Source: Cyanobacteria bacterium P01_D01_bin.156
Lineage (GTDB): Bacteria > Cyanobacteriota > Cyanobacteriia > Phormidesmidales > Phormidesmidaceae
NCBI GenBank assembly: GCA_039024555.1
Contig: JBCCQQ010000010.1
Location: 1 to 64,000, forward strand
Direction: 5' to 3'
DNA: 64,000 nt
Shown here: one piece after another, positions 2,448 to 53,849 of the stretch
Numbering within the stretch: position 1 is the stretch's first letter
How the letters are laid out: each line of letters starts with the position of its first letter
The notes under the pieces: model-generated
What the model was told of the DNA's origin: nothing
Database searches by the model: none
What the model saw: the letters and a program-made list of their open reading frames with translations, nothing else
Translations under genes and position numbers: made by a program

Positions 2448-2470
2448 AAAGTACCCTTTCGGGTACTTTC
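2448..2470. promoter_or_regulatory. Palindrome AAAGTACCC-TTTC-GGGTACTTT (candidate regulator site or RNA hairpin)
   Basis: Perfect 9-bp arms. A 19/21-identical copy lies at 44282-44302. Confidence 0.55.
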
Positions 2471-2596
2471 CGTCCTAAACTCTAGATCCTGATAATGATA
2501 ACTAGATTTATTGGGCAAAGATTTCTTAAATTTCTTAGTTACCTAAGAAATCTTCTGTCTAGTGAAAACGTATAAAACAACCAGGGTGATGGATCT

Positions 2597-2986: not shown

Positions 2987-3111
2987 CTGGATTAAAGGCA
3001 AATTATTGATTCCACCAGTTGAAAGCAGTAGACTTCTCATAGTAGGTATTAACAATGCCTACTATGAGAAATTTATTAAGCAGCTAAGAGTATACATAAG
3101 GAGATAAGGCG

Positions 3112-9729: not shown

Positions 9730-9731
9730 GG

Positions 9732-31973: not shown

Positions 31974-32688
31974 TTCCCCTAACTAGAGATGTCACTGAGA
32001 CCTTGGAACAATGTCTAACATTCACATGTCTGTGATGATAACTAGACCATAACGCGGCCACTAAGGGTGTCAGCCGTTAACGACTGTTTGCACATCGAGC
32101 ACTGTTATAGTAATCAGGGAAATTATCATGATGCTCAAATATATTGCTTGGTAGGCTTCGCAGAACTACTTCTGTAGGAATTTTCTTGGTGCATCAGGGC
32201 AACTGTTGAAGCTTAAAACATCAGCGCTATCAAATCTGTTGATTTCAGTGTCTATTGGTTTCAGTAATAGACGCTAGAAAAAGACAAGCTAAACGTTGCA
32301 GCTCATAATTATTGGTCTGACACAGTAGCTATCAGCCAAGTTTCCATAATTTACAGATTGCTTATTTTTCTGGGCTGGAATGTTCCGATTCCTGAACTTT
32401 TCCGAGTCTTGTCAACAACTGTTCGGATTCTTTGTAATTAGCTTGTTGATTAAGATATCGGGGGTGCTTTACTAGCGCTATTTTTTCATGTCTTTATAGC
32501 CATATTCAGATCAAAACTGAGGATGTGAGCTTCGGTTCAAGCCATCTATTCGAAGTTCTGATCAATTGTCAGAGTAATCTACAGCAAGCTGTTAATTGTA
32601 TTTAGCCGTTTGCACTGCCCATTGCTATGTAAAGTTCTGGCAATTACCTGACAGTTATATGCGCAAAGCTATCTTTTTATTTTTGGAG

Positions 32689-35520: not shown

Positions 35521-36122
35521 CAGGTCATATACCCATCACTGTAGAGCACCGTGGAAGAAGTATTTGCTGTAGCTGTGATAGTAGCAGAAAACTCCAGTAG
35601 CCAAGAGTTTCGGCCTGATAAATAAACGCTATAAAGACCGTGTTGACCACAAATATTTTTTATTATGAGCATTTATTTTCCGGAACTAATCGCTAGAGGA
35701 GAGCATCTTTATAAAGAAGTTTCGCATCTACTGAAATTTAGCCGTAATTAGAATTAGTGAGTGCTGGCATCAAATATTGCCCAATATTCGATTTTTAAAG
35801 CGCCATTATTTAGCTATGACTATCTAAATATTTTATAGAGTCAGTTAACCGTTAGTTAGATTGAATCTTTATTGCTAAGGGCAAGGTAAGAAATAAGTGT
35901 TTGTTGATCAAAGTAGCGCTACCAATATGATCTTCTGTCGGCTCCCATACCGATGGTTGTTGAACTCAGTCATTTCTCTCCTGGAGAGTACGGTTTTAGT
36001 GAGGCAGTTTCGTGCATGTGGTGAACTGAGGGATTTATATGTTCATCCGGATCATGTGTTGACAACAGCTTGTCAGTCGAGTTTATGACCACTCTCCTCA
36101 TATATACAGAGGTTTAGGAGGA

Positions 36123-38999
36123 ATGCTAGTGAATCGAGACGCTCTATTTCGAGGTGCAGGAGTCGCTGTTACTTTTCTGCTCCTTGCATTTTTAGGAATT
36201 AAAGGTAAATCTGTCGATGTGCGCCAGTACCAGCGTTACGCCGACTTGATTTCGAGCCAAGTTGAAAGTGATGCAGAAGTTGAACTGGCCTTGCTTAAGG
36301 AACGTTACACGGTTCTGCGGAATGACGAGCCCCTAGAGGAGGCATTGGCAGAAGAACTCTCTATTCAAGAAGAGCTCGCCAAAGAGGTTCCTGATTTTAT
36401 TTCTAAAGACGCCCAAGATACATTGCAGCAGTTAATTAGTCGGGATGCCCAGTTATTACAAGAAAAGACTGAGCTCATTAATCAATTTCAGCAAACCAAC
36501 TCGGAGCTGCAAAATGCCTTGGTGCAGCTGCCAAGTTTGGTTAATAACCTAAAGAATACCAGCGACGCTGATCTAGAACGGCTGATTGATGATGTCTTGA
36601 TTTACATTATGGCCACTGATGAGCAACTAGTGGCCACTATTGAGAAAGAGTTAGGTACTGTTGAGACTAAGCTAGATTCTAATGATTTCTCTAGTTCCGA
36701 TGATGTTGCACAGGTTGTTCAACTATCGCAGACGGTTTTACAAAATAAGCCCTTAGCCGATGCATTAGTCGATCAGGTCATCAACTTACCGCTTACTCAA
36801 AATATTAGAGAGTTAGAAGATGCCTTTGATCAGTCTAGCCGCAGTGCGTTTCGACGAACGGCACTCTATCGCAATACAGCTTACCTGGTGGCTCTCGCAC
36901 TCATTGGTGTGATTGCCTATAGTTTAATAGCTCGATTGAGGCAGTCGACCCAGCGGACAACAAGTGTCCTAGAAAATATTACTGATGCTTTTGTAGCCGT
37001 TGATCGTGGGTGGAAAGTCACCTATGTTAATGCGCAGGCTGCGGAAGTCTTAAAGCGAAATATTCAAGGACTTTTAGAACAGGATTTTTGGAAGATTTTT
37101 CCAGAATCTCTGGGCCTACGTTACCAGCAACAATATCGTCGGGCGATGGCTGAGCAAACGGTCGTCAGTTTTGAGACCTACTACGCTCCTACCCAACGTT
37201 GGCTACAGGTGCGGGGCTATCCTGGTCGTGATGGTCTGTCACTGTTTCTACAGGATGTTACGGAACGGAAGCAGGCAGAAGAGCAGTTGATGGAACTCAA
37301 CCGTGACTTGGATAGCCGCGTGCAGGATCGCACGACTAAACTCATGAAGGCTATGGAAGAAGCGGAAGAAGCGCGGGTTAAGGCAGAAGATGCCAACCGT
37401 TCTAAAAGTGAGTTCTTGGCAAATATGAGCCATGAACTACGGACGCCGCTCAACGCCATCATTGGTTACAGTGAAATGCTGGAAGAAGAAGCGACTGATG
37501 TCGGTGAAGACGACTTTGTTCCTGACTTACAAAAGATTCAGGGGGCAGGAAAACATTTACTGGGGCTGATTAATTCGGTGCTGGATCTGTCCAAAATCGA
37601 AGCGGGTCGGATGGAGCTGTTCTTAGAAGAATTTGCTATCCAAGACTTGGTAACAGATATTGCGGGGACCATTACGCCAGTTGCTCACAAAAATGAAAAT
37701 CATCTATCGGTGTTCTGTCCTGATGACATTGGTAACTTGCATGCAGATCAAACAAAGCTACGTCAAAGTTTGTTCAATTTGCTAAGCAATGCCTGCAAAT
37801 TTACTGAAAATGGTGATATTACTCTAACGGTAGAAGAAGTCTCTACGGTTGATAGTGATATCTATGACGGTCCATGGCTAAGGTTTATCGTTAGCGATAC
37901 CGGTATTGGTATGAAGGAAGATCAAATTGAAAAGATCTTTGATGCGTTTACCCAGGCCGATGCATCAACCACTCGAAAGTATGGCGGAACAGGTTTGGGA
38001 TTAGCCATTACCAAACAGTTTATCAATATGATGGGTGGTGATATCTCTGTAGAGAGTGCCCATGGCCAAGGAACAACATTTTCACTGCTGATTCCACAAG
38101 TGGTCCAGACTGCCAATGCTAAAGGGAAGACATTCTTTGCTCCAGCCCTATCTTCTGAAGGGGCATCGAGCCTGCCCAGTGGCGATATCACTAAGATAGC
38201 GACCAAACAAACAATTTTAGTGATTGATGACGACCAGGATGCTCGAGAAATCTTGCGTCGTTCTCTAAATGAGGCTGGTTATAACGTAGTTTGTGCAAGC
38301 AGTGGAGAGCAGGGACTGGCATTAGCAGAAGAGCTATTACCAGATGCCATTACTTTGGATGTAATGATGCCACAGATGGATGGATGGTCTGTATTGAGGC
38401 AGCTTAAAGAGACCCCCACGGTTGCGGATATTCCTGTTATTTTATTGTCCATTGTCGATGATCGTCCCCTGGGCCACAGTCTGGGAGCTGCAGATTATCT
38501 TACTAAACCCATTGATAGGCAGCGGCTGCTGGGAGTTTTAGAAGCTCATCTTTCCGGTCAAGCATCACCCACAATTTTGGTGGTTGAAGACGATGTCAAT
38601 GCCCGGGAGATTATGGGGCGCTTTTTACAGCGCCAAGATTGGACGGTAGATTTGGCCGCCAATGGGCGTGAAGCGGTGCATTATCTGGATGTGACAACGC
38701 CAGACCTGATTGTCCTGGATTTAATGATGCCTGAAATGGATGGATTTGAATTTATTCAGGTCTTGCGCCAAAATCCAGACTGGCAAGATATTCCTGTGAT
38801 TGTTGTTACGGCTAAAGCATTAACCGTTAGCGATCAACAGCAGCTGGAAGGCGTCGCACGGGTGTATCAAAAGGCCGATCTCAATCGTCAAGAGTTACTG
38901 AATGAGCTGCAGGCAGTTGTGTCAGCTAAAACAGTCTCAATGCCCAGTACAACAGATTCAGTGTCTAGCCCTGATAGGGTGTCTAGTACATCTGATTAA
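36123..38999 (+). CDS. Hybrid histidine kinase, paralog of the upstream gene
   Basis: Same architecture with near-identical PAS/HisKA/HATPase; both REC domains canonical. AGGAGG precedes the ATG. Confidence 0.94.
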
Positions 39000-39038
39000 C
39001 CCGCTAGTGACTGTAGGCTGAGGTTAATTAAGGGGATT

Positions 39039-41309
39039 ATGACAAAAATTTTATTAGTTGAAGATAATGAGCTCAATCGCGATATGTTAAGTCGGCGCCT
39101 TCGTCGTCGTGGATATGAGCTGTCAATTGCCGTAGATGGGGCAGAAGCGATCGCAATTGCCTCTGCCCAGACCTTTGACCTTATCCTGATGGATATGAGT
39201 CTGCCAGTGATGGATGGATGGGAAGCAACACGTCGTCTAAAAGCCCAACCCCACACCCAAAAGGTCCCCATTATTGCTTTGACTGCCCATGCTATGCGAG
39301 GCGATCGGGATCAAGCACTGGCGGCAGGATGTGATGACTATGATACCAAGCCTATTGATCTCAAGCGACTATTAAGCAAAATAAAATCCTTCTTATCATC
39401 AGAACAACTGGCAGATACGTCAAGTACTCCCAAACCTATCAAAACGAAGGAAAGTCCTGCGGCACCGGTGATTCCTATCAAACCAATCACCCCCATTGCC
39501 ACGCCAACTATTCTGCCGATATCTGCAACAACTTCCGAAACACCCGTTACACCAATTAATCCCGAACCTTTCCCCAACCCATCGGTTGCTCCTGAAGTTC
39601 AGTTGCCCAGCGGACTCCCAGCTGCTGCTACACCTAGTGATGATCTGTGGACTACTCCCTCTCCATCCTCTAAGGATGAACTATGGACCACCCCCTCCAC
39701 TGATGAGCTATGGTCACCCCCATTAGAACCAACCTCCCTGGATGTGGCCGGTATTAATCTAGATGTGAGCAAGAATGAGCCACCAGCCTCCCCGATTACG
39801 GCAAATATTCCAGACGTTGCGTCTGATGCTACTGAGGTCAAAGCTCCAGCTACTCTCGATGACGCAGATGTCAAAACTCCAATAGCTAGTGAAAAGAAAA
39901 AGAATATCTTTAGCGGCTTGCCCATTTTAGTGGTGGACGATAACGAAGATAACCGCGACATGTTAAGCCGTCGCCTTACCCGTCGAGGCTACTTAGCTGT
40001 TGTGGTAGAAAGTGGTGAAGCCGCTCTAGATTATATTGCCACCCATGCCGATGTAGCCCTAGTCCTTCTCGATATCATGATGCCAGGGATTGATGGTATC
40101 GAGACCTTAAAGCGTATTCGCAAAAACTACTCTCGTCAGCAGCTCCCTGTACTAATGGTTACTGCCAAAGCGCAGAGTGATGATATGGTCAAGGCTTTTG
40201 AACTAGGGGCCAATGACTACATTACTAAACCCATTGATTTTGCAGTGACCTTAGCTCGGGTGGAGACACAACTGGCGATTGTTAAAGCAACAAAGGTCAT
40301 AGATGAGCCTCCCCGATCCATTCGTCGTGCTCCAGAGGTTGCTGCTAAGAAACCCAGTGCACCACCTAGCACACCACTACCAGTAACTTCTGAAAAGACA
40401 GCTGAAAAAACAGCACCGTCTGAGCCTCAGCCAACTAGTGCAAACATTAGTCTGGTCCCTGACAACACAACGTTTTCTCGGTTCGCGGCAGATCGCTATC
40501 AGGTACAGTATTTCTTACGACAGGAGCCCCTCGGACCTCTTTCTATTGCCTTAGATAAACACACAGATTCTCTAGTCCTGTTGCAGACCCTCAAGGCGTA
40601 TTCCCAAGATACCGCTGATTTGTTAAAGCGAATCATGGAAAAAGAGACTGAAGCCTTTCAGCCACTAAGATCCCTTTTTCCAGGATATACCTATGGTCAA
40701 GTCGGAAACACGTTCTATATTGTCCATGGCTTGGGGGATACCTTCCATCAAGAGCAGTTACTACAGGCTAAATTGCAAAACCCTTGGCCATTGGAATCTG
40801 TTCTACTATTAATGGATCGCCTGCTGGAACAAGTCAGTGTCTTTCATCGCCACAACCAAATTCATACAGGGTTACGAGATGACTGTTTTATTCAGACCAA
40901 TGATTGGGAAACTAAGGGACAATCAATGGTTTTAGTGGACAGTGGTCTGGGCAAGCGAGTCATGATTGGCGTTAGCCAACAGTCTGCTGAATATCGCAAA
41001 CAGCTATTGATGCAGCGAGACTATCAGCCCTTGGAGCAGCGGATTGCTCGTCCCGTTATGAGTAGTGATGTCTATGCTCTGGGGTTAATCGGTCTGCAAG
41101 CACTGACTGGGCAATCCATTGATCAATTGACCATGCCCAGCGTTAGCGGAGAGCTACAGTGGCGTCAATTTACCACCATTCCCGATCCAATTGCAGAATG
41201 GTTTGAACAACTCATTCATCAGAGTCAGAATAAGCGCTTTGGCCATGCTATGGCCGCTCGCAACGCGCTTACTCCCCACCTACAGACTTACATGGCAGAA
41301 CCGGGGTAG
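39039..41309 (+). CDS. REC - Pro-rich linker - REC - degenerate Ser/Thr kinase-like domain protein
   Basis: Two REC domains, both with NRDMLSRRL. The C-terminal HTGLRDDCF / VDSG / YQPLEQ / SDVYALG motifs align to kinase subdomains VIb-IX. Confidence 0.85.
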   Translation: MTKILLVEDNELNRDMLSRRLRRRGYELSIAVDGAEAIAIASAQTFDLILMDMSLPVMDGWEATRRLKAQPHTQKVPIIALTAHAMRGDRDQALAAGCDDYDTKPIDLKRLLSKIKSFLSSEQLADTSSTPKPIKTKESPAAPVIPIKPITPIATPTILPISATTSETPVTPINPEPFPNPSVAPEVQLPSGLPAAATPSDDLWTTPSPSSKDELWTTPSTDELWSPPLEPTSLDVAGINLDVSKNEPPASPITANIPDVASDATEVKAPATLDDADVKTPIASEKKKNIFSGLPILVVDDNEDNRDMLSRRLTRRGYLAVVVESGEAALDYIATHADVALVLLDIMMPGIDGIETLKRIRKNYSRQQLPVLMVTAKAQSDDMVKAFELGANDYITKPIDFAVTLARVETQLAIVKATKVIDEPPRSIRRAPEVAAKKPSAPPSTPLPVTSEKTAEKTAPSEPQPTSANISLVPDNTTFSRFAADRYQVQYFLRQEPLGPLSIALDKHTDSLVLLQTLKAYSQDTADLLKRIMEKETEAFQPLRSLFPGYTYGQVGNTFYIVHGLGDTFHQEQLLQAKLQNPWPLESVLLLMDRLLEQVSVFHRHNQIHTGLRDDCFIQTNDWETKGQSMVLVDSGLGKRVMIGVSQQSAEYRKQLLMQRDYQPLEQRIARPVMSSDVYALGLIGLQALTGQSIDQLTMPSVSGELQWRQFTTIPDPIAEWFEQLIHQSQNKRFGHAMAARNALTPHLQTYMAEPG

Positions 41310-41316
41310 TCATCCG

Positions 41317-44013
41317 TCATGAGCCATTACCAATAAGTACAAACGGTGCCCAGTAATAGGGTTCATGGTGCCCTTGATCTATTAGCTGTTGTTGAGCACT
41401 TTGGAGCGCTTGAGCTTTAGTGTTACCTGTCTGCAATGCCCGATAGAAAAGCTCCATTAGCGTTGATGTGGCGCGGTCATCGACCCACCATAGCGACGCT
41501 AATGCGGCTTGTGCCTCTGTGCGCTGGACCTGAAAGCCCATGCCTAAAATCTCTAACCCGTCCTCAATATGGCTAATGCCAGTTTGGCAGGCACTAAGTA
41601 CGACTAAATCTACATTGGGCAATGACCAATGACGTAATTCCTTGAGGGTAATCGTATCTCCATCCCCCAGTAAAATAAATGAGTTTTCGGGCTGCCCTGG
41701 AACAAAGGCGGCATGAGTTGCTAAATGGACAATATTTTGTCCATTTAATTGGTTTTCCAGATTGGCACGGGTAAAGTCTGTGTCGAGTAAAATTTGAGTG
41801 TCAGGAAATGTCTTCTGTAAAGCATGCACTTCTCGACCAGCATAAGGTAGCCCATTAAAATTCATGTTTTGCTGGGCAATTCGCTTTTCAAACGTTTGAT
41901 TAGTATTGGTAAAAGCCCCGGCTAACACACTCCATGGCTGTTGCGGTGAATGGGTTAAATCACCCACATTACTGGCTGTCAAGTTATAGGAAACATAGTC
42001 CTGTGTGAGCCATCGACCACTCTCACGATTATATAGAACAGAGAGCGGAATATAGTGAAGAATGCCGTCAGGAATGTAAATAATATGTTCGATGGCCAGT
42101 TTTTCAAGAGTTTTGTTGAAAGGAGCAATAATAGCGTCATATAGTGAGCTGGCAATGGCTTTAACGTCACTGCTGGGATCTACCAGTTGTTGACGTAGGA
42201 CATTGACTTGCTCTTCAATTTGATGCTTGCTCAAGCTAGTTGTTTTATGAATGGGTGCCCCATCTGCTGAGACAAGCAACAACTCTAAACGATCTTCAAG
42301 AATGAGAGGGTAGAGCACAGCAGACTCATAAGGCAAGGCATTAAGTTTTTGCTGGAGTTCTTTCAAGGAATCTGAGTGTAGCTCGGGATTCCTATTGAGG
42401 GTGTCTAGAGCTCCCTCTACATCGGGATATGCTAAGAACTCTTCCAAACTTAGAACTGGAGAGGTTTCGGCAAAGGTCTCTAATAGCAAGATCTGGTGCT
42501 GTTCTAACAGTATTCGCTCTCCAGTTAGATAGGGCAACTTCTCTTTGAAGTCAGGTTGTTCTGAGCGAACATCGTGGAAGTAGTCTTCAAGTTCTTGGAT
42601 CTTGAGTAAATCTAAAACCTGTTGTGCTTCAAAAACACGATTTTGCTTTAGTAGTAGGGCTACTAGTTCTCGATAACTGTTAGAAACGGTTTCGACATAG
42701 CGCTGCTGAGTTTCTAAGGGGAGCGATCGCACATTGTCTCGAATTTGCTCAATGTCATTAATAGCCTGTTTATAAAATGCGATCGCTAGCAGCGGCTGTT
42801 TTTGCTGAACTAGAGATTCAGCAAAACTGATAGTGGCCATGATTGTTCGTTGTCGCTCCCCTCCATCTAAAGCCAGTCGCAGGGCTTGATGATAGTTCTC
42901 CCAGGCCACAGCATAGTCTTCTGTAGCCGAGTAGGCCCTAGCAAGTGTGATTTTGAGGTTTATCCGCAGGCCTCTATCATAGAGGGAAGTTAACTCAAGT
43001 GCTTTATTAAGCAACGATATGGCGGACTTGAGTTCCCCTAAAAAGATATGCACGTTACCCAGATTATGTAACGTTGCACTAATGTCAGAAGGACGGCCTA
43101 AAGACACTTTGATTGCCAAGGCCTGCTGATAAAAATTTAGAGCAGCTGAGTAATTGCCCTGGCGATTTTCAACGACTCCAAGATTATCGAGTATTTGGCT
43201 AGTTTGCAGCGTGTCGCCACCTGTAGCATCTAGGGCAAGAGCCTGCTTATAAAATTGCTTAGCGGTTTCATAGTCTCCTAGGTGAGTCCAAATATTGCCA
43301 ATATTGATTATTGACTTGATTTGATCTTCAATAAAAATCTCATCCACATATTCAGCATAGCCTCTTTCAAAAACAGATTGAGCTTGAGTGTAGTGCTCAA
43401 TAGCATTAGGAAAATCACCATAATCCTCAGAAATAGCTCCCAATATGTAGTATGAGTAACCTAAACTGTCTGGTGTTACAGGTGCATCTAATGACAGCTC
43501 AATAACTTGATTTAGAAGCGCAATAGCCTGTTCTCGCTGCCCCAATTTAAAGGCTAACCGTCCCCAAGAATAGAATATATCTGCTCTCAAAGTCATTACT
43601 TGGGGGATTTCAATCATATCAGTAATGCCTAGAGCCTGTTGATAAGCTTCAACGGCTAACTGTGGCTGAGACATCTCATGATAAATCTGGCCAATTTTCT
43701 GTAATGTAATGGCTAACCCAATAGAATTATCATCTTGCCTGTAGAGATCCTTTGCCTGCTGAAACGTGTCCAGGGCAGCTGATAGCTGATCATCTATAAA
43801 TAGACGCTCCCCTACGTCTAATAACGTTTCTATTTGGACAGCTTGCGTTGGATGAGTCTGAGCTAGGATCGTAGGCGCTCCTAAACTTAGAAAAAAGACG
43901 AGACTTAAGCCCAGATTAATAGGTATTTTTTGTCGCACTAATCCTTTACTGCCAAAAGCTCCACACTTTGAGAGTACACAACGAATCCTCAAAGTGTGGA
44001 GTGTTTTTAACAC
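41317..44013 (-). CDS. TPR-repeat CHAT-domain protease with signal-like N-terminus
   Basis: TPR array followed by HLATHA, VVLSACQTG, SLWWVDD and PYYWAPFVLIGN. Start codon uncertain. Confidence 0.92.
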   Translation of the reverse strand: MLKTLHTLRIRCVLSKCGAFGSKGLVRQKIPINLGLSLVFFLSLGAPTILAQTHPTQAVQIETLLDVGERLFIDDQLSAALDTFQQAKDLYRQDDNSIGLAITLQKIGQIYHEMSQPQLAVEAYQQALGITDMIEIPQVMTLRADIFYSWGRLAFKLGQREQAIALLNQVIELSLDAPVTPDSLGYSYYILGAISEDYGDFPNAIEHYTQAQSVFERGYAEYVDEIFIEDQIKSIINIGNIWTHLGDYETAKQFYKQALALDATGGDTLQTSQILDNLGVVENRQGNYSAALNFYQQALAIKVSLGRPSDISATLHNLGNVHIFLGELKSAISLLNKALELTSLYDRGLRINLKITLARAYSATEDYAVAWENYHQALRLALDGGERQRTIMATISFAESLVQQKQPLLAIAFYKQAINDIEQIRDNVRSLPLETQQRYVETVSNSYRELVALLLKQNRVFEAQQVLDLLKIQELEDYFHDVRSEQPDFKEKLPYLTGERILLEQHQILLLETFAETSPVLSLEEFLAYPDVEGALDTLNRNPELHSDSLKELQQKLNALPYESAVLYPLILEDRLELLLVSADGAPIHKTTSLSKHQIEEQVNVLRQQLVDPSSDVKAIASSLYDAIIAPFNKTLEKLAIEHIIYIPDGILHYIPLSVLYNRESGRWLTQDYVSYNLTASNVGDLTHSPQQPWSVLAGAFTNTNQTFEKRIAQQNMNFNGLPYAGREVHALQKTFPDTQILLDTDFTRANLENQLNGQNIVHLATHAAFVPGQPENSFILLGDGDTITLKELRHWSLPNVDLVVLSACQTGISHIEDGLEILGMGFQVQRTEAQAALASLWWVDDRATSTLMELFYRALQTGNTKAQALQSAQQQLIDQGHHEPYYWAPFVLIGNGS

Positions 44014-44055
44014 TATCTCTAGTGTGGTACGTATAAACTAATATCGGCTACATGG

Positions 44056-44175
44056 TTATGAAAAGGTATATTGACGACTGAATTTGCGAGATAACCATCT
44101 CATTGCTCGACGTCTGCGATTGGGACGTGAATCTGGACGTACGGGGGCTGATGTATCTGATGAAGAAGCGGTCAT
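44056..44175 (-). CDS. Possible 39-aa Pro/Arg-rich small protein (MTASSSDTSAPVRPDSRPNRRRRAMRWLSRKFSRQYTFS)
   Basis: ATG-to-TAA ORF directly upstream of and co-oriented with the CHAT gene. No clear SD sequence. Confidence 0.35.
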   Translation of the reverse strand: MTASSSDTSAPVRPDSRPNRRRRAMRWLSRKFSRQYTFS

Positions 44176-44281
44176 AGTGAACTACTTAGCCTAATTTTCT
44201 GCCGTTAGAATTTCCAACTTCGATGTAACAAGCGTGTTGCCGTTGATATCTTGATGATGAAATCTGGGGGATGGATCTGTC

Positions 44282-44302
44282 AGTACTCTTTGGGGTACTT
44301 TC
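44282..44302. promoter_or_regulatory. Second copy of the GTAC-N8-GTAC palindrome
   Basis: AGTACTCTTTGGGGTACTTTC versus AGTACCCTTTCGGGTACTTTC at 2450-2470. Lies in the divergent CHAT/sigma intergenic region. Confidence 0.55.
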
Positions 44303-44770
44303 AGTATCAATTTTGCTGTGTAGTCAAATGCTACATGGCTACTTGATATATTCCGGACAAGGTTTTAGCAAATCAACATCTATCGTTGCTGATCTAGAAG
44401 ATGGAGCGAGCAATAACGCTGCCTAAGGGGCTGGATATGATCGATCAAGCCAAGTCGAGGGTCTGGATGCTGGACAACTACTGGGGATTTTTTATCGCCA
44501 TTTCTTGACAGTGGCAACGGCCTAAAGATTGGCCTGATGAAAACTTTGACCTGACTGATAGCCGCTTATACATCCTGCTCTAGCCGACCGATGGACTGCA
44601 TAGATTTGATGATTTGCTTTGGACTGACCCAAACTTTACTTTTGTAAATTCCTCCGGACGAGTGCAGAATAATTTGACTTTGCCCTGATGAATAACTAGC
44701 CGTATAAATTGATATAGGTGGAAAGACGCTAATGCGGACAGTTTTCAGGCGGAGGAACCCAGGGCAGTCA

Positions 44771-45409
44771 ATGAATAATGCTCCAGATGAATTACGTCGG
44801 TTAGCTTGTGAGGCGTGTCGTTACCGTTACGGTAGCCCAGAACGCCAACGGTACCTAACCCAGTTAATTCAGATGGTAAAGCCCCATCTTTGGCGAGACC
44901 CTAACCCTTATTACCAGGATGCTCTGCAACAAACATGGATTTACTTATGCCAAAACCTGTGTGAAGGCAAAACAGCTAAGCCTTATGACCCTGATATTGC
45001 CAGTGTTGCAACTTGGTTAAATGCGTATCTTAAATTTCGACTATTAGATTTTTCTAACGCGACTAAACAAGAACGTCAACGCTGCATTTCTTCCTACACC
45101 GATGATGGCAAGACGACTAATATTGTGGAGACCTTAGTCGCTAAACCAGCCATTCCTCCAATCTTAGAGAGAGTTCAAGATTGGTTAGAACAGAACGCTC
45201 ATGAATTATGCCAGATTCATATCGCTAATCATCCGGAAATCAACTGTTATGAAATGATTCTTAGGCGGCTACCTCCAGAAACGCCTTGGCACGCAATTGA
45301 AACAGAATTTGGGGTGTCCTATAAAACTCTTGAAAGCTTTTATCGTCGTCAATGTAAACCTCGCCTTCGAGAGTTCGGGCGAGCCGAAGGTCATTTGAGT
45401 ACTCGTTAA
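44771..45409 (+). CDS. Compact sigma-70-like factor
   Basis: Region 2-like YQDALQQTW...YDP...SVATWLNAYLKFRLLD and C-terminal HTH WHAIETEFGVSYKTLESFYRR. Alternative start at 44732. Confidence 0.75.
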   Translation: MNNAPDELRRLACEACRYRYGSPERQRYLTQLIQMVKPHLWRDPNPYYQDALQQTWIYLCQNLCEGKTAKPYDPDIASVATWLNAYLKFRLLDFSNATKQERQRCISSYTDDGKTTNIVETLVAKPAIPPILERVQDWLEQNAHELCQIHIANHPEINCYEMILRRLPPETPWHAIETEFGVSYKTLESFYRRQCKPRLREFGRAEGHLSTR

Positions 45410-45461
45410 AGTTTAGTTTGTTGATTCCCATCACTGTCACAGCATTCCGGAGTATCCATCC

Positions 45462-46430
45462 ATGTCTTATTCATCACAAAATAACAATGTAACCATGTTG
45501 ACCTGGCCCATTACCCAACGAGGGAAACTAATTGCCCAACAGTTTGCCAATGCTCACTCTCATCCTGAGATTGCAGAGCGTGTTCGAAAAAATACTCTAG
45601 CGGTTTGGGTCATTCATGATTTCTTCTGTGCTTTAGGTATCGCCACGGATTTATTGACGAGCGATAGCTGGAATCCTGCCATGCAAGCCATAGAGGATGT
45701 GGCTGATTTAGTAGTGCCGGGGATGGGACAGCTAGAATGTCGTCCAGTTTGTGGCGAGAGCACTGTCTATATGCTGCCAGAAAACACTTGGGAGGAACGG
45801 ATAGGTTATGTTGCAGTCGCCTTGAACGAAGGAGTCGGGGAAGCTACTTTACTCGGATTTGCATCTGAAGTGCCTCCTACTCAACCTCAATTACAACGGG
45901 AACAACTACAGCCGATGGAGTATTTCCCAGCGTATCTCCATCAAATTCGTCATGAGAAAAGTACTCCAGAACGTTCTCAGCTAACACAGCTCAGTCAATG
46001 GGTGGAAGGCTATTTTGATGATGGCTGGCAGTTAGCAGAAGACTTGTTGGCTCAGTATATGTGGACTCCAGCTTTTCGGCAGAGCTCTCAACTGTTACAG
46101 TCAGAGACTGCTCAGCAAATTAAACGAGCAAAACAGCTTGACCTGGGACTTAAGCTGGGAAGAGAACACGTGGCTCTGGTGCTGGAAATTGGCCAGGATA
46201 AGGCGTTTACTAATGTGGGAGTCCGTGTATACCCTCTCGGCGGGCAGATGTATTTACCAGAGAGTCTTGTGGTCAAGATTTTAGATGAGACTGGCAAGGT
46301 ATATTTGACTGCCCAGTCGCGCAGTTTAGATAACTATTTGCAACTTTATTTTAGGGGGCATCGTGGGGAATTTTTTAGTGTACAGCTAGATTTAGCAGAC
46401 ATCTCTCTTGTGGAACATTTTATGATTTGA
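45462..46430 (+). CDS. DUF1822 family protein (candidate anti-sigma factor)
   Basis: NTLAVW, SDSWNP, LECRPV, RIGYVAV, LSQW...GWQ, AFR and DNYLQL motifs. Confidence 0.85.
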   Translation: MSYSSQNNNVTMLTWPITQRGKLIAQQFANAHSHPEIAERVRKNTLAVWVIHDFFCALGIATDLLTSDSWNPAMQAIEDVADLVVPGMGQLECRPVCGESTVYMLPENTWEERIGYVAVALNEGVGEATLLGFASEVPPTQPQLQREQLQPMEYFPAYLHQIRHEKSTPERSQLTQLSQWVEGYFDDGWQLAEDLLAQYMWTPAFRQSSQLLQSETAQQIKRAKQLDLGLKLGREHVALVLEIGQDKAFTNVGVRVYPLGGQMYLPESLVVKILDETGKVYLTAQSRSLDNYLQLYFRGHRGEFFSVQLDLADISLVEHFMI

Positions 46431-48853
46431 TGCGGAACAGTATGGTTAATCAGGTCAACCAGGACAATCCCCTCGGTAAGCTGGTAGTACTTAAGTTGGG
46501 TCCTGGCAACTTCCAGCAAGGTTTTGCCGTAACCCTGCAAATTGGTTTTGAGACAGAACGACCGACGTTAGAACTAACGGGGATGCTACCTCCAGCACCA
46601 GATTTACCAACGTTATACCATCAGTGGCAGGCGGCTTATCGACAAATGCAGGGGCCGAACCGTCTGGAAGCCCAGACCAGCATGGTCACTAATGTATCTT
46701 GGGTCGGGGATTGTCAGGAAAGCGCTGAGATGCTGTGCGATCGCATCAATCACTGGCTTATCCAGCCAACTTTTCAACCTATCCACAACAAACTGTTAGA
46801 ACAGCTAAATCCCGCTGATGTCATCCGACTCGTAGTACAAACAGAAGACCCCATCATCAAACGACTGCCATGGCACCAATGGGATCTGCTCCAGCGATAT
46901 CCCCAGGCAGAACTAGCCCTAAGTGCCCCGGTATACCAACAGGTGACAGCCCCTAGGCATCGACAGAAAACCGTTAGGATTCTTGCCATATTTGGCGAGG
47001 CAACTGGCCTAGATTTATCCACAGATCAGACCTTACTGCAAAATTTACCCGACGTCGATCTGCATTTTCTGACCGCGCCTAGTCGACAGACTCTCAATCA
47101 GTATCTATGGCAGTCCCAAGGTTGGGATATTTTGTTCTTTGCAGGCCATAGCAACAGCAATCACAAAAACGGACTGCTTAGTTTGAATGCTCAGGATAGC
47201 CTAACGATTCCTGAGCTGAAATATGCGTTGACTAAAGCGGTGCGGCGGGGGTTAGCGATCGCAATTTTTAACTCCTGTGATGGTCTAGGGCTGGCGGAAG
47301 ATTTGGCCGATCTCCATATCCCGCAAATTCTCATTATGCGAGAGCCTGTGCCAGATCGAGTCGCCCATGAATTTCTCAAGGGTTTTTTGGAAAATTTTTC
47401 CCACAATACACCGCTGTATCTATCCGTGCGGGAAGCCCGAGAGCGGTTGCAGGCATTAGAACATCAATTCCCCTGTGCCACCTGGCTACCGATGCTGTGC
47501 CAAAACCTAGCCCAGCAGCCCCCTACCTGGCAAAGTTTGCAGGGCCGGTCGTCAGTCATTGCCCAGAACAAGCAATCCAGGGAAGTACATCAGCCCTGGA
47601 TTGCCGTTGGGGTAGGAACTGCTATTACCGTTGCCACCCTGGGCATTCGTCTACTAGGGGGGCTGGAGCTATTGGAGCTAGCGAGCTATGACCGCTTTAC
47701 TCGCTGGTGGCCGTTCTGGGAAAACCCTGACTCCCGTATTGTTGTAATTGAAAATACAGCCACTGACCTAAAACAACAGGGATTGGATAGGACCTCCCAT
47801 ACATCCATTACCGATCAAACATTGCTGGCTGTATTACAAGAGATTGAGTCATTTCAGCCTAGGGTGATTGGTCTCGATATTTATCATGAACATGACATCT
47901 CTCCCGATTTGCCAGAATTAAAACAACAATTAGAGACTTCGGCCAATCTAGTTACCCTGTGTAAACACGCGTCCATCTCAACCGCAACACAGGGTATTGC
48001 CCCACCACCGAATGTGGACCTGACTTATGGTGGTCTAGGGTTTAGCGATTTGTTTGAAGATCGAGACGGGAAAGCCCGTCGTATTTTATTGGCAACAGAG
48101 CCCCCACCAGGATCTGTTTGTACAGCTTATAAAAGTTTTGCGGCCCTTGTGGCCGCTCATTATTTGGATGCGAAAGCGATAGAAAGGCCCCAAAGTCCTT
48201 GGTTGGATGATGTGTTTTGGTCTAACGATGAACAGTTTCAAATTAAACAGACCCAGATTCCTCCCTTACATCCGACTTCTGGAGGGTATCGCTTATCAAG
48301 ACAAGGCTTTGGAGGCTATCAGCAGCTACTTCACTATCGACATTTGCAGGATCTAGAAGCTATTGCAGACACCTACACATTATCGGAAATACTAAATGGG
48401 AAGGTTGCAAGGGAGGCACTGCGCGATCGCATTGTACTCATCGGTACCACAGCCCTTGAATTTGGTATGGGCGACATTGAAGAACGAGATTTTTGGGAGA
48501 CTCCTTACACCACTAGTGAGCGTCCTGAAGACATGATGCCAGGTGTTTTTATCCAGGCGCATATTATTAGCCAGCTGATTAGTGCGGTAGAAGATAATCG
48601 TCCCCTGATTAGCACCTGGAATGAAGGGTTAGAGATCGGATGGATTATCCTCTGGTCATTAGTGGGAGGTGTCTTGGGCTGGCATTTAACCAAAGGGAAG
48701 TTTTGGTTAATGTTCTTGACCCTAGAAACTAGTTTGTTTCTAATTTGCTGGATACTACTGGCAGTCCCTGCCATTTGGGTGCCCTATGTTCCTGCCGTCA
48801 TCGTCTTCACAGGCTCCACTATCACCGTTAATCACTACCGATATCGCCCATGA
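46430..48853 (+). CDS. CHAT-CHASE2 membrane protein (N-terminal CHAT-like protease, TM, CHASE2 sensor, C-terminal TMs)
   Basis: LPWHQW, FFAGHS (His) and FNSCDG (Cys), then a TM segment, CHASE2 motifs PRVIGLDIY, GFSD, IVLIG and PGVFIQA, then hydrophobic helices. TGATG overlap with the DUF1822 stop. Confidence 0.88.
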   Translation: MRNSMVNQVNQDNPLGKLVVLKLGPGNFQQGFAVTLQIGFETERPTLELTGMLPPAPDLPTLYHQWQAAYRQMQGPNRLEAQTSMVTNVSWVGDCQESAEMLCDRINHWLIQPTFQPIHNKLLEQLNPADVIRLVVQTEDPIIKRLPWHQWDLLQRYPQAELALSAPVYQQVTAPRHRQKTVRILAIFGEATGLDLSTDQTLLQNLPDVDLHFLTAPSRQTLNQYLWQSQGWDILFFAGHSNSNHKNGLLSLNAQDSLTIPELKYALTKAVRRGLAIAIFNSCDGLGLAEDLADLHIPQILIMREPVPDRVAHEFLKGFLENFSHNTPLYLSVREARERLQALEHQFPCATWLPMLCQNLAQQPPTWQSLQGRSSVIAQNKQSREVHQPWIAVGVGTAITVATLGIRLLGGLELLELASYDRFTRWWPFWENPDSRIVVIENTATDLKQQGLDRTSHTSITDQTLLAVLQEIESFQPRVIGLDIYHEHDISPDLPELKQQLETSANLVTLCKHASISTATQGIAPPPNVDLTYGGLGFSDLFEDRDGKARRILLATEPPPGSVCTAYKSFAALVAAHYLDAKAIERPQSPWLDDVFWSNDEQFQIKQTQIPPLHPTSGGYRLSRQGFGGYQQLLHYRHLQDLEAIADTYTLSEILNGKVAREALRDRIVLIGTTALEFGMGDIEERDFWETPYTTSERPEDMMPGVFIQAHIISQLISAVEDNRPLISTWNEGLEIGWIILWSLVGGVLGWHLTKGKFWLMFLTLETSLFLICWILLAVPAIWVPYVPAVIVFTGSTITVNHYRYRP

Positions 48854-49623
48854 AGTGCATTTACTCCTTGACCAGTCATACGCCTTTTTATCTTGTTTTG
48901 TTGCTCCCGTTTAGCCTAGGAATAGCTTCTCCTGGGTTAGCCCATACGTCTAAAATTTTTAACAGACCGATCGCTGCGCCCACACTTTTGACAGGACGCC
49001 CTAGTAATTTAGGCTATCCCCAAGATGGCACCCGGCGGGGCGGTGGCAGTCGTGGTGGAGTATGCGATGTATCTCCGGGCACCCCTCCCTTAACGGCCCT
49101 CATGCCCGACACCAGTACCTGGACCGACAGTGAGCAATCTTCCCTAGAGGACGTTGTTTTTAGTTTGACTCAACAATCGTCTCCAGACATCTGGATTTAT
49201 GTTCCCTATATTATCGAGACGTCTAATCAGCTACTGTTTACCCTCAAAGACGACGCGAATAATCAGCTGATGCGGGTACAGCTAGCTTCTACAGAGAATC
49301 TTCCTTCCACCCCTGGTATTATTCAGGTCTCCTTTAATAGTCTAGGAGTCAATCTATTACCCAATGTGGATTACCACTGGTATGTGACGGTGAACTGTGA
49401 GCAAGGCCCTCCAGTTGTGGTGGATGGCTGGTTACGGCATCAGGTTGATCGAGCAGAGGACGCTCCTGAGCATACTTTTTTTGTAGATGACCTATCGTCT
49501 TTGGTTCAAACAACCAGTAGCGATGCTTCAGCCCGCATGGAGTGGCAAGCTTTATTGAAGGCTGTTGGATTAGAAGATATTTCTACAGCACCGATTGTCA
49601 ATTGTTGTCGTTTGGTTAACTGA
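48850..49623 (+). CDS. DUF928 family exported protein
   Basis: Signal peptide; RRGGGSRGGVC, LTALMP, WIYVPY, YHW and LLKAVGL motifs. ATGA overlap with the CHASE2 gene. Confidence 0.85.
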   Translation: MKCIYSLTSHTPFYLVLLLPFSLGIASPGLAHTSKIFNRPIAAPTLLTGRPSNLGYPQDGTRRGGGSRGGVCDVSPGTPPLTALMPDTSTWTDSEQSSLEDVVFSLTQQSSPDIWIYVPYIIETSNQLLFTLKDDANNQLMRVQLASTENLPSTPGIIQVSFNSLGVNLLPNVDYHWYVTVNCEQGPPVVVDGWLRHQVDRAEDAPEHTFFVDDLSSLVQTTSSDASARMEWQALLKAVGLEDISTAPIVNCCRLVN

Positions 49624-49716
49624 GATCTTGCACCAGTCTCACTAAAGGCTTGGCAAGTGGACAAAAATCTGAAAAAACGGGTGTAACCAAACGAAAAACT
49701 GGAGGCCATGATAAAC

Positions 49717-49753
49717 CAGCCCCGGCAAACATGCTTGCCGAGGCTGTTTTTTT
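49717..49753 (+). terminator. Intrinsic terminator of the sigma-DUF1822-CHASE2-DUF928 operon
   Basis: CAGCCCCGGCAA...TTGCCGAGGCTG followed by T7. Confidence 0.75.
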
Positions 49754-50322: not shown

Positions 50323-53300
50323 TTACTTCTCCTCATGCTTAGTAATCGCCAGGGTGACTTCGCCAGTGTTGTCATCTGGGTAAGTATCCACAAAAAAGGC
50401 ACAGAGGGTAGCGGGTTCTCTAACGGTGAGTGTCAGACTATCGTCATAACCGTTGAGGGTAGTCCACGTAGTGCTAACCGGTATTCCTGTTTGGGGATTG
50501 ATGACAGTGCCACCGTGAATCCATAGAATTACAAAAGGCTCACCGGGGTGACTGTCATCGCCATCGTAGTTAAAGACGCCATCCTTGATTTTCAGACTGT
50601 ATAAACCTGGTGACAGATAGTGCGTACTCGCCACAGTGTGTTCGATATGGTGCAGCTGATGTGCATCGAACATAAGGGCATTTTTACGACTGTGAACTTT
50701 AACAGTTTGGCCCTGGTCCTTGTCAGTCTGGCTTAGGGCTAGGCCACCGGCCATAGCGGCTCCAACGGCGGCCATATCAGTGGCGCTTACCCCGGTGTCT
50801 CCATCTTTAGTTTCATCAGAAGTGCTGACGTCAGGTGTCTGAAGTGGCTTGATGACGTTGGAACGGGCCAGCATGAGCCAGTCACCACCCGGTGCTTGGT
50901 AACCGACCTCTGCCAAGTAATCACTATCCCCATTGGGTAGGGGGACTGTGCGATCGCAATCTGCTTCAGCCAAATCGTAGGTTAGCGTGCTCTTAGGAGA
51001 CTGTTGATTAATATCCACATCAGTCACATCATGGATTCGCAGCTGATACGTTTGGCCGCCCTCAGCTTTGACCGCAGTTTTTGCCGCTTCTGGCACATCC
51101 CAGACAGCGTATGCCTTTTGTGAAGACTGGGACGACAGTTTAATACTGCTGGACGGTACTGAAACATCCTCGCCAGAGGGCTGATCGTTTTTGTTACCCA
51201 TGGCTGCAGCGCCAGCCACGCCAGCCACAGCCCCTCCCAAAATAGCGGCACCTGGAATACCTGACTGGGCAACCTGCAGTGGCTCAGACTGGGCTAAAGG
51301 CAGCCATCTTCCCTCAGCGGTTTGGTAGCCCACAGCTGCCATGTAGTTGCGATCCGCAGCCGGAAGGGCAAACTCCGCATCCACATCCTGGTCAGAACAT
51401 TCCACCTGAGCAGCGGGTTCTGGTAGGTCTGCCCCAGGCTGATAGTCCGTAACATCGTAGAGCTTAGCCACCATCGTTTCTCCCCCCTGACGGCGTGCTG
51501 CCGCTAGGGACTCTGAGGGAATGTCCCACTGAGCATGCAGCCGCTTGCCATTGGGACTGGCTAACAATAGCTCACCAGGATGACCAGAGATTAGTTCTAA
51601 ATCGGTTTTAGTAGCCGCTTCGTTGGCCGCCTTATCCTTACCGCCCAGCTTAGCCGCGCCCAAAGCCGCAGCACCAGCCAGAGCGGCACCAGCCCCCATG
51701 GCACCCAAGTTAGGACCCTTAGGCGCAGCCCCATCAACGCCCAGCTGCATGGGGACCCGTACCGGATCAGATTTAACAATCGGTAGCCACTTTTTATCAG
51801 CACTCAGATAGCCAAGTTCTGCACAGTAGCTGCGATCGTCCGCCTGAATGGGGATGTGTAGGTCTGGATGCTCTTCAATACAGGGATATTCCCCCACAGG
51901 TGCTGGCAAGGGGCCTTGTTTCGGTCGGCCGGTTACATCGTAAACGCGTAGGGTCAAGTCTTTGCCTCCCTCGCGCTTAACTGCTGCTAGCTTCTCCTGG
52001 GGAACTTCCCAGTAAGCATAGGCATTCTGGCCATCACGGGGAGTGAGTACCAGTCGGGACTTATCCAGGGCCCCAGCAGCGCCGACCGCCGCCGCTCCGG
52101 CCGCTGCCGCTCCGGCGACTCCGGCAGTCGCGGCTCCGGCCCCAGCTGCTGGGGCTGCGGCCCCACCACCTTTCTTTAGCAACCACCACAGCAACCCTCC
52201 CAGCACAGGAATGGCAAATAATGGCAAAATCCACCAGGGGAAGCCGCCACGTCCAGCTGCTTCAGCACCTGCAGCCGCTACCACATCGGCATCAGAAGGT
52301 GCAGCGGTGGGTGGCGTATCTATAGGGGCGGCTGCCGAATCAGTCCCTGTGGCTGCATCAGTGCCAGCGGCATCAGCCGTTGCAGCTTCGGGATCGGTTG
52401 CGACCGCTGTGCCGTCATCTGCGGCAGCTGTGTCGCTATCTGCGACCGCTGTGTCGCCATCTACGGCTGCACCAATCACTTCTTCTCCAGGGTTAGACGT
52501 TGCGAAACCAAGGAAGGCAAGCGTAGCTGGATCAGCGTCTGCCTTGTAAACAAAGGCTCGATACTGAGAGTAAGGATAACGAGGATCGTCTGGCAGAGTC
52601 TTATGCATTGGAATGATGCGGACATCATCACGTTCTAGCACTTGGGAAACCACCGAGTAGCCAATACCATCCTCACCCAGAGCGTTGATGACAGTCTCTG
52701 TTTCATCGTCATCAATGGGTGCTGCTGTCGCACCTGTCTCAAAGGGTTTTCCCTCAAATACGGTGTAGGTACTGAGGGCGCGGCGGGTATCGCTATAGTC
52801 TGGACGATCAACAAAGCGAATGGGTAAATCAGGACCGCCTAGCGCTGACCAATTGGTAATGTCTCCACGAAAAATCTGAGCAAATTGCTCAAAGGTCAGG
52901 TCCCCTTCAAAGGGGTTTTCTGGCCCTACGATAATTGCCAGCTTTTCCCGTTGCTCCAGGGGAACTTCCACCACACCCTGATTTCTTTCTTCCTGGGTTA
53001 GGGGACGACCAGAGGACAGCACGTCAATGTCCCCATTAATCAGTGCTTCAAACGCCTCATCGGTGCGGCTGGCGTCTAGCTCCACATCCACATTGGGATA
53101 CTGCTGCTCAAATCGACCTTCTAGTTCTTCGTTTGTCAGCCGCATACTGGTGGAACCATCCACCCTTAAGGTCGTACCGTCGGGCAATGACCCGGGAATT
53201 GGAAAGCTTTCGGGCACTTCTCCAAAAGCTTGGGCCTGAGCCTGACGAGAAAAACTTTCACCAACGGCCTGAGACACCGTTGCCGCTATCAGACAGGTGG

Positions 53301-53334
53301 TCGCGAATTTGATCAAGGACATTTTGCGATACAC
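50323..53334 (-). CDS. PstS-like periplasmic binding domain - TM - three DUF4912-like repeats - conserved C-terminal beta domain
   Basis: RVDGSTSM and IFRGDITNWSALGG (PBP); WW-containing TM; repeats AYAYWEV / LHAQWDI / AYAVWDV, each followed by [LV]xDVT and Y.A..GY. Confidence 0.85.
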   Translation of the reverse strand: MYRKMSLIKFATTCLIAATVSQAVGESFSRQAQAQAFGEVPESFPIPGSLPDGTTLRVDGSTSMRLTNEELEGRFEQQYPNVDVELDASRTDEAFEALINGDIDVLSSGRPLTQEERNQGVVEVPLEQREKLAIIVGPENPFEGDLTFEQFAQIFRGDITNWSALGGPDLPIRFVDRPDYSDTRRALSTYTVFEGKPFETGATAAPIDDDETETVINALGEDGIGYSVVSQVLERDDVRIIPMHKTLPDDPRYPYSQYRAFVYKADADPATLAFLGFATSNPGEEVIGAAVDGDTAVADSDTAAADDGTAVATDPEAATADAAGTDAATGTDSAAAPIDTPPTAAPSDADVVAAAGAEAAGRGGFPWWILPLFAIPVLGGLLWWLLKKGGGAAAPAAGAGAATAGVAGAAAAGAAAVGAAGALDKSRLVLTPRDGQNAYAYWEVPQEKLAAVKREGGKDLTLRVYDVTGRPKQGPLPAPVGEYPCIEEHPDLHIPIQADDRSYCAELGYLSADKKWLPIVKSDPVRVPMQLGVDGAAPKGPNLGAMGAGAALAGAAALGAAKLGGKDKAANEAATKTDLELISGHPGELLLASPNGKRLHAQWDIPSESLAAARRQGGETMVAKLYDVTDYQPGADLPEPAAQVECSDQDVDAEFALPAADRNYMAAVGYQTAEGRWLPLAQSEPLQVAQSGIPGAAILGGAVAGVAGAAAMGNKNDQPSGEDVSVPSSSIKLSSQSSQKAYAVWDVPEAAKTAVKAEGGQTYQLRIHDVTDVDINQQSPKSTLTYDLAEADCDRTVPLPNGDSDYLAEVGYQAPGGDWLMLARSNVIKPLQTPDVSTSDETKDGDTGVSATDMAAVGAAMAGGLALSQTDKDQGQTVKVHSRKNALMFDAHQLHHIEHTVASTHYLSPGLYSLKIKDGVFNYDGDDSHPGEPFVILWIHGGTVINPQTGIPVSTTWTTLNGYDDSLTLTVREPATLCAFFVDTYPDDNTGEVTLAITKHEEK

Positions 53335-53456
53335 GATTTTGTTCCCAACTAAGTAGACGGCACAAGGACGATTTCAAAAGAGCGTAGAGAATGCGAGATG
53401 CACTGAATGCGACTAACAATGATTTTTATGGGTGACGGATAACTGAGATCGATTGA

Positions 53457-53849
53457 CTAAATGGCAGTCACCGAAAGGGTTAACTCTCCACCGTGGTTTC
53501 CTGTGCTGGTATCGAAGAGCAGAGCACAGAGAGTTGCAGGTTCAAGCACCTCCAAAATCAGTTCATCGGTGTAGCCGTTAAGGGACGCCCAAGTAGCGAC
53601 CACCTCAGTATCCGTCTGTTTATTGATTACCTTGCCACCGTAAATCCATAGCAGGACCCAGGGTTCGGCTTGATCGCCAATACCAGTGACATAGGGCGTG
53701 TCGCCTTCTAGCAGTTTGATCCGATTAGTTCCAGGTTGCAGGTTCACTGACACCCCGTTATCTTGAATCGCCGTCATCTGTTCGGGGCTCAGACGATAGC
53801 AATTGTGCTGACTGTGGACCTTGATCTCTGCAACTACACCGCTTTCCAT
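53457..53849 (-). CDS. Stand-alone homolog of the C-terminal domain of the downstream PBP/DUF4912 protein
   Basis: Shares KVHS, EP.V.LWI.GG.VIN, W..LNGY, EPATLCA and G..TL motifs with that protein. Confidence 0.85.
   Translation of the reverse strand: MESGVVAEIKVHSQHNCYRLSPEQMTAIQDNGVSVNLQPGTNRIKLLEGDTPYVTGIGDQAEPWVLLWIYGGKVINKQTDTEVVATWASLNGYTDELILEVLEPATLCALLFDTSTGNHGGELTLSVTAI

Follow-up and report, generated by a model that had tools for sequence, protein, structure and literature searches.

We describe here a five-gene locus in a 64,000-nucleotide stretch of the genome of Cyanobacteria bacterium P01_D01_bin.156 (contig JBCCQQ010000010.1, positions 1 to 64,000; hereafter the window), where an operon for an extracytoplasmic function (ECF)-type sigma factor, a DUF1822 protein, a receptor protease with CHAT and CHASE2 domains and a DUF928 protein stands divergent from a tetratricopeptide repeat (TPR)-CHAT protease. 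Taken together, our sequence, structure-model and neighbourhood analyses suggest that these genes may encode a two-module, two-protease relay, a scheme to which, as a whole, we give about even chances. On some cue the exported TPR-CHAT would recognise DUF928 and cut it after R68, and processed DUF928 (either the tail peptide or the folded domain with its new N-terminus) would engage CHASE2. The engaged receptor would then switch on its cytoplasmic CHAT, perhaps through displacement or cleavage of the Arg loop (R79) that the receptor itself carries. This CHAT would sever the two domains of DUF1822 by a cut after R206, and the ECF-type sigma would be freed as the fragments are degraded or let go. 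We infer every cut and every binding step from the genes, folds, catalytic dyads, conserved sites and co-occurrences reported below. Among the parts, we hold it likely that the membrane CHAT cuts DUF1822 at R206 and nearly as likely that exported TPR-CHATs recognise the DUF928 motif, while DUF1822 probably inhibits the sigma factor and activation of CHASE2 by a cut product of DUF928 falls a little short of an even proposition. The system would most likely work like HetF-PatU3-HetZ with an exported protease step added, though outside that pathway. What is new relative to the gene set already catalogued is indirect sequence evidence for both proposed cuts, pointing to protease-target pairs.

The features of the locus are as follows.
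41317..44013, minus strand: exported-type TPR-CHAT protease, 898 amino acids (aa) counted from the first GTG; the true start may be further in
44652..44708, plus strand: non-coding block upstream of the sigma gene, with a TCCGGA hexamer, conserved in close relatives only; candidate promoter
44771..45409, plus strand: ECF-type sigma gene, 212 aa; frame open from ATG 44732
45462..46430, plus strand: DUF1822 gene, 322 aa
46074..46079, plus strand: codons F205-R206 of DUF1822; the membrane CHAT is predicted to cut after R206
46427..48853, plus strand: receptor protease gene (EACC2-type-CHAT-TM-CHASE2; TM, transmembrane helix), ATG 46430; frame open from TTG 46427
48850..49623, plus strand: DUF928 gene, 257 aa
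49039..49053, plus strand: codons of the DUF928 GGGSR motif (R68), predicted recognition or cut site of an exported TPR-CHAT
49717..49753, plus strand: terminator-like hairpin with T7 tail, intrinsic type, between DUF928 and a convergent gene

This arrangement is far above chance: of the 73 homologous loci with sufficient flank, 62 have DUF1822 after the sigma gene. The original prediction had described the five genes, the divergent TPR-CHAT and a translationally coupled operon end, and this description holds: all five open reading frames (ORFs) are present, the DUF1822 and receptor genes overlap by TGATG (46428-46432), the receptor and DUF928 genes overlap by ATGA (48850-48853), and the terminator that it placed after the operon is a hairpin of 13 pairs (49717-49746, -18.8 kcal/mol) followed by T7, 3' of DUF928. 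The sigma and DUF1822 genes are spaced by 52 nucleotides. Both CHAT domains keep the His and Cys that it had claimed for them, as H767 and C809 in the TPR-CHAT and H241 and C284 in the membrane CHAT. The cascade that it drew from these genes is supported in part: each proposed enzyme-substrate pair has indirect sequence support, and the outer step may run with either sign.

Evidence for the inner cut lies in the linker of DUF1822. The structure model (predicted local distance difference test score, pLDDT, 82) consists of an N-domain at residues 35-168, a disordered stretch at 202-216 (pLDDT<50) and a C-domain at 219-321 that in fold searches resembles immunoglobulin (Ig)-like beta sandwiches; some homologues carry a helical insert after the linker. 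Within the disordered stretch R206 is kept in 66/66 and F205 in 64/66 close homologues, with weakly conserved flanks. In a distant, class-wide sample (n=63) Arg occupies the linker column in 60, and a [FLMY]-R-small motif is found in 48 of the 63 linkers, against a mean of 11.7 and a maximum of 22 in 2000 shuffles. As judged by sequence, this invariant Arg is a signature like the HetF cut site in PatU3. In Anabaena PCC 7120 HetF cuts PatU3 between R117 and S118, with Y116 preceding the Arg (PMC9457339), and PatU3 inhibits HetZ, which was shown to be an ECF sigma (PMC13342950). We found the cut-site Arg invariant in 27 of 27 PatU homologues drawn from 30 loci, at position 117 in four of them.

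A sigma-type gene precedes DUF1822 in 54 of 59 cases, and an EACC2-CHAT comes after it in 43 of the 54 cases with a downstream gene. Three loci without a CHAT in that place have a caspase (two) or a subtilase (one) instead, and the subtilase locus is without the linker Arg. Outside the class, the DUF1822 N-domain occurs in one of 40 genomes (L252:6390-9837), fused to a long, acidic membrane protein with a single pass whose gene immediately precedes that of an ECF sigma. Longer fused forms of DUF1822 numbered none at E<=0.001, which is weak evidence. We also note, in the genome of the window, a 167-aa ORF made of the N-domain only (L012:5815-6318) beside a phage-tail-sheath gene and an endonuclease-domain protein; the contig also carries a separate sigma homologue (L011) at a distance of some 30 kb. 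The window itself contains a further sigma-DUF1822 pair, which belongs to another clade (8596-10961, minus strand); its sigma passes TIGR02937, its linker reads VRFR followed by S, no CHAT receptor is adjacent, and two TPR-CHATs (409-5769) and a signal peptidase (6393-7448) are encoded nearby.

The proposed enzyme of this step has an N-terminal EACC2-type domain with the loop residue R79, a CHAT domain with H241 and C284 and a post-Cys D310, a TM helix at 392-410, CHASE2 at 400-749 and C-terminal membrane helices. We assigned the EACC2 label by architecture and not by a profile, taking the name from PMC8195603. The H241/C284 dyad is invariant in 55/55 and 48/48 aligned homologues, and R79, which stands in an otherwise variable loop and may from its conservation (55/55 and 43/48) be a self-cut site, is nearly so. 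A post-Cys motif with Asp is common to HetF and the window CHAT. By hydropathy the receptor has no signal segment, a helix precedes CHASE2 and further helices follow it, and we therefore place its CHAT in the cytoplasm and CHASE2 outside; the sigma and DUF1822 proteins have no convincing membrane segment. A check on compartments set beforehand thus puts CHAT and DUF1822 on the same side. Release of the CHAT from the membrane by self-cutting was considered and appears unlikely, because there is no conserved Arg between CHAT and the TM helix. The same EACC2-CHAT module is also joined to periplasmic-binding, PsbP-like, STAND-WD40 or HEAT C-termini. Sequence searches of the PDB with the receptor, PatU, HetZ, DUF1822 and DUF928 returned nothing meaningful, and the TPR-CHAT matched TPR proteins only.

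The first gene of the operon has no Pfam or NCBIfam match and 821 homologues. Its structure model (pLDDT 83) gave in two fold searches top matches that were mostly ECF sigma factors, over regions 2 and 4, among them SigW (Z 10.3, root-mean-square deviation (rmsd) 2.6, 88 residues aligned); region 2 spans approximately residues 1-105 and region 4 residues 130-208, joined by a short linker. On this modelling the product is a divergent ECF-type sigma factor, which would be expected to bind RNA polymerase and to direct transcription from specific promoters. Most homologues use the start at ATG 44771. One clade of the genes upstream of DUF1822 passes the TIGR02937 cut-off, another gives only weak, sub-cut-off matches, counted as 3 of 13 or as 3 of 10 homologues, and the clade profiles were iterated on these same loci; a high score between the SIG2 and SIG3 profiles was discounted, both having been iterated on overlapping loci. 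A profile comparison of the sigma with HetZ was not significant. No motif was common to 78 upstream regions, a universal autoregulated promoter was not found, and a check for RNA listed no holder; the upstream block is conserved only among close relatives. Its TCCGGA (44652-44657), present in most of them, is the -35 hexamer of sigma(HetZ), with no obvious -10 at 17 nucleotides.

Additional support for the relay comes from paired variation in the two proteins of the outer step. The TPR-CHAT has a signal-like segment at residues 32-50, TPRs and a CHAT domain at 619-896, while DUF928 has a signal-like segment at 13-31, a Pro/Gly-rich tail with GGGSR and a folded Cys-containing domain, both segments being called by hydropathy only. 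We presume that both proteins are exported, possibly into the thylakoid lumen, and regard DUF928 as a candidate exported pro-ligand for CHASE2. The tail ends, shortly before the first Cys, in a Gly-rich S/T-Arg motif. Its R68 shows 98% conservation across 55 sequences. Of 136 copies 103 were scorable and 33 were not; 86 of the 103 carry the motif, as do 135 of 150 representatives of a family of 8,467 clusters, for which the family atlas gave no other family. Two exceptions with Leu for Arg adjoin two TPR-CHATs that form one clade; only these two enzymes have a Lys at the second position ahead of the catalytic His, together with changes in the post-Cys loop. A search of 301 genomes with one Lys-type TPR-CHAT yielded 28 matches, 26 of the Lys type, and wherever a neighbouring DUF928 was readable its motif was GG(G/S)L or GGL (16/16). 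Beside other TPR-CHATs it was Arg in 39 of 41 rows, the exceptions being one misread and one DUF928 shared with a Lys-type enzyme; these counts come from automated motif scoring corrected by hand (one Leu motif, one fragment). The DUF1822 of Lys-type loci retains its Arg, and the change is therefore confined to the exported pair. A Lys that fills the acidic pocket while the substrate loses its Arg is the pattern that should be expected of an enzyme and its substrate; we take this position to be the pocket by comparison with separase. The window TPR-CHAT has the common pocket type, with Ala two residues before the catalytic His, and on sequence the window pair belongs to the common Arg type. 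The Lys/Leu switch was probably one evolutionary event.

Other DUF928 copies show the same elements in other settings, among them three loci of this genome (L006, L001 and L013). At L006:3718-9800 a Lys-type TPR-CHAT accompanies a GGGL DUF928 and a CHAT-CHASE2 receptor, with sigma and DUF1822 not adjacent. At L001:6915-7931, between a TPR-CHAT and a CHASE2 hybrid kinase, a DUF928 paralogue consists of five tandem units each ending in GGASR; the motif is thus present in five copies there, and in four in L161. A full paralogous cluster (L013:4260-12934) has a 451-aa divergent sigma-like gene, DUF1822, a receptor and a Pfam-negative DUF928-like gene with a GSR motif. In the window DUF928 itself, RRGGGSR (49033-49053) bears a loose likeness to the PatS/PatX inhibitor peptides, RG(S/T)GR (PMC13342950), which is probably coincidence.

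The distribution of these genes resolves the system into two modules, both of which also occur with other partners. Our locus sample took the best 80 of 523 genome loci, 78 with a called sigma ORF. Among the loci of this sigma-homologue sample the CHAT-CHASE2 receptor is present in 48/62 and DUF928 in 38/59, and DUF1822 lies upstream of every receptor (48/48). Of 27 receptor proteases of the CHASE2 type, 18 are followed by DUF928, against none of 10 with other sensors, so DUF928 partners CHASE2 and not the sigma arm. This genome has 43 Pfam matches to CHAT, 18 to CHASE2, 13 to DUF928 and 5 to DUF1822, and 34 TPR-type CHATs. In it 9 of 12 DUF928 genes have CHASE2 no more than 1 kb away, against 1.3% for random windows, and 8 of 12 have a TPR-CHAT no more than 6.5 kb away, against 6.9%. 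Here DUF928, often together with a TPR-CHAT, stands beside CHASE2 proteins with kinase, GGDEF/EAL, cyclase, AAA or EACC2-type CHAT outputs. Among 41 genomes drawn across the class DUF928 is present in 35 and DUF1822 in 28. CHAT and CHASE2 genes are present in each of five small genomes with DUF928, and of five DUF928-negative ones four are without CHAT and four have CHASE2. Close relatives have the TPR-CHAT gene in the divergent orientation; three other loci (L071, L073, L094) carry it within the operon. In the close relatives TPR-CHAT and DUF928, on opposite sides of sigma, are both present in 7 loci and the window and both absent in 4. A quick tree puts the window TPR-CHAT in a 16-member clade, 13 of which flank sigma-DUF1822 operons. 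We tentatively suggest, at somewhat less than even likelihood, that DUF928 proteins are exported pro-signals cut by matched exported proteases of an Arg and a Leu class, with the product serving as the CHASE2 ligand whatever the output.

Several points weigh against the relay. Of the 31 core loci that have long flanks, only 12 contain a TPR-CHAT, 7 of these being close orthologues, and 19 are without it; since both modules are found with other partners, it is not a fixed part of the locus. The window copy also falls outside the main DUF928-linked clade of 28. Three close relatives have sigma and DUF1822, with the Arg kept, but have lost the receptor protease; 9 of 27 CHASE2-type receptors have no following DUF928, in 19 of 47 full-length DUF928 regions both CHASE2 and TPR-CHAT are missing, and in the surrounding DNA examined 10 of 26 Lys-type TPR-CHATs are without a DUF928. 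The conserved Arg could serve for docking or inhibition instead of being a cut site, and co-inheritance alone, within one clade, could explain part of the Lys/Leu switch. Profile similarity between DUF1822 and PatU is not significant (best probability about 2%, 1 of 30 shuffles scoring higher), so the PatU3 precedent is an analogy only. Finally, for Csx30 the part of PMC10028731 drawn on here indicates that a cut alone may not free the sigma factor.

Similar gene sets and mechanisms are on record. Kaur et al. (2021, eLife, PMC8195603) catalogued sigma-DUF1822-EACC2-caspase neighbourhoods with CHASE2 among the sensors and proposed activation by autopeptidase activity; in one row of the supplement, a Fischerella cluster additionally includes a TPR-caspase and an exported beta-rich gene. 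Their systems share with ours a constant N-terminal domain, a CHAT, a variable sensor and the neighbouring ECF sigma and DUF1822. Section 9 of that paper names neither a substrate nor a site, and by keyword DUF928 is named neither there nor in 12 of the 13 supplementary files. It labels DUF1822 as TPR (text) or TRADD-N plus TPRs (supplement), whereas the window copy models as nuclease-like, linker and Ig-like parts, with neither TPR nor TRADD-N among the 50 structural matches listed for it. In the portion that we cite, a WD40 paper mentions a pair of CHASE2 with DUF928 and a response of a DUF928 gene to acid stress. As to the claim that the neighbourhood is common but mechanistically undescribed, we found no experimental study of the system and none naming the R206 or R68 sites or the specificity switch in the literature, most subscription papers aside, but the neighbourhood and a proteolytic proposal are already in print (PMC8195603).

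The nearest precedent is HetF-PatU3-HetZ and not Csx29-Csx30, which had been offered as the model. In that system of the same phylum the target of a cytoplasmic, membrane-anchored CHAT is a protein that inhibits a divergent ECF sigma, is co-transcribed with it and is cut behind a conserved Arg; however, HetF has periplasmic TPRs where the window receptor has CHASE2, an exported protease or DUF928 step is not described in the portions of PMC9457339 and PMC13342950 cited here, and the pathways are not orthologous, the match to the HetF model being only at E 9e-7, far below cut-off. This genome carries elsewhere a HetF-like gene below the model cut-off (L018), HetZ-PatU (L019), whose PatU keeps the cut-site Arg, and two HetZ-related genes (L020, L021). 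Csx29-Csx30-CASP-sigma (type III-E, PMC10028731) and DdvA-DdvS of Myxococcus xanthus (PMC11506125) are, by analogy, more distant. In the former a TPR-CHAT-family protease likewise cuts a two-domain anti-sigma, but Csx29 is cytoplasmic, is triggered by RNA via Cas7-11 and cuts in a loop of the C-terminal domain, whereas the window TPR-CHAT has a signal-like N-terminus; there is no cas gene among the annotated window ORFs, a count that covers part of the ORFs and did not extend to CRISPR arrays. DdvA is a periplasmic TPR-CHAT tied to ECF sigma control and illustrates that a CHAT can sit outside the cytoplasm, but there TPR-CHAT, TM and anti-sigma are one protein whose release is proposed to need RseP, while the window has four proteins with two CHAT proteases.

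Three other accounts of the locus were considered. The outer step may have the opposite sign, with intact DUF928 keeping CHASE2, or the exported protease in the manner of a securin-like pseudo-substrate, switched off until cutting or titration of the tail lifts the brake. The Arg/Leu co-switch shows recognition and not catalysis, translational coupling of DUF928 to the receptor suits a stoichiometric partner, and Pro follows Arg in 5 of the 86 DUF928 motifs, Arg-Pro bonds being usually not cut by proteases; but the tandem motifs of L001 and L161 and the stand-alone DUF928 genes (19/47) better fit a processed or diffusible signal, and we regard this inverted outer step as unlikely. Slightly less probable again is the autopeptidase model of Kaur et al., under which CHASE2 would sense a small molecule, the membrane CHAT would cut itself, DUF1822 would be an adaptor or co-activator and the TPR-CHAT would be only loosely linked. 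It can draw on R79 as a candidate self-cut site, on the 19 of 31 loci without TPR-CHAT, on the abundance of TPR-type CHATs in this genome, 34 in all, and on the receptor paralogue at L006 without adjacent sigma or DUF1822. It leaves unexplained, however, the invariant linker Arg of DUF1822, the substitute proteases downstream of it and the co-switch of DUF928 with TPR-CHAT; the lack of a conserved Arg in the CHAT-TM stretch makes membrane release unlikely, and a self-cut at R79 would also fit our relay as its activation step.

A defence or conflict system, with DUF1822 as a latent PD-(D/E)xK nuclease or DNA-binding effector freed by the cut and the sigma as accessory, appears improbable. It would draw on the DUF1822 N-domain, which over residues 35-168 gave six nuclease-fold matches (PD-(D/E)xK-like), the best being I-Ssp6803I (Z 9.2, rmsd 3.0, 117 aligned), Hje (7.9) and Hjc (7.1), and on the window's subfamily, where D82 never varies and E92-x-R94 is conserved at 90% or above. 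Family-wide (n=63), though, D82 is kept in 28, E92 in 25 and R94 in 20, the usual Lys is an Arg (ExR, not ExK), and the nuclease D...(D/E)xK set is lost in over half of the members, while a Z of 9 may mean a common fold only. Because the catalytic-looking residues persist only in the window's subfamily, we read the N-domain as a pseudo-nuclease. The tight link to the sigma gene (54/59) also speaks against a defence role, as do the synteny of the locus among close relatives and the result that no PADLOC model matches the four operon proteins.

Of the genes next to the locus, two tandem DAHL-PAS hybrid histidine kinases and a double response-regulator protein (32596-41309, plus strand) are syntenic upstream in close relatives. 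On the other side (50323-53849, minus strand) is a protein with a PBP-like domain, a TM helix and three DUF4912 repeats, flanked by two small unannotated genes, one of which (130 aa) resembles the large protein's C-terminus.

Cyanobacteria hold many unexplained CHAT, CHASE2, DUF928 and DUF1822 genes, and we know of no ligand for CHASE2. The named residues R206, R68, C284 and C809, together with a natural Arg/Leu specificity pair, make the family testable, and HetF-PatU3-HetZ illustrates that such a switch can drive cell differentiation. If the relay is true, it would supply a ligand for CHASE2 and would mean that bacteria have a caspase-to-caspase cascade that crosses a membrane. Should the broader reading of DUF928 as a pro-signal also be true, the locus would be a membrane-spanning double caspase cascade within a protease-gated, peptide-coded signalling language across cyanobacteria, with sigma release as its output here and kinase, cyclase and c-di-GMP enzymes as its outputs elsewhere.

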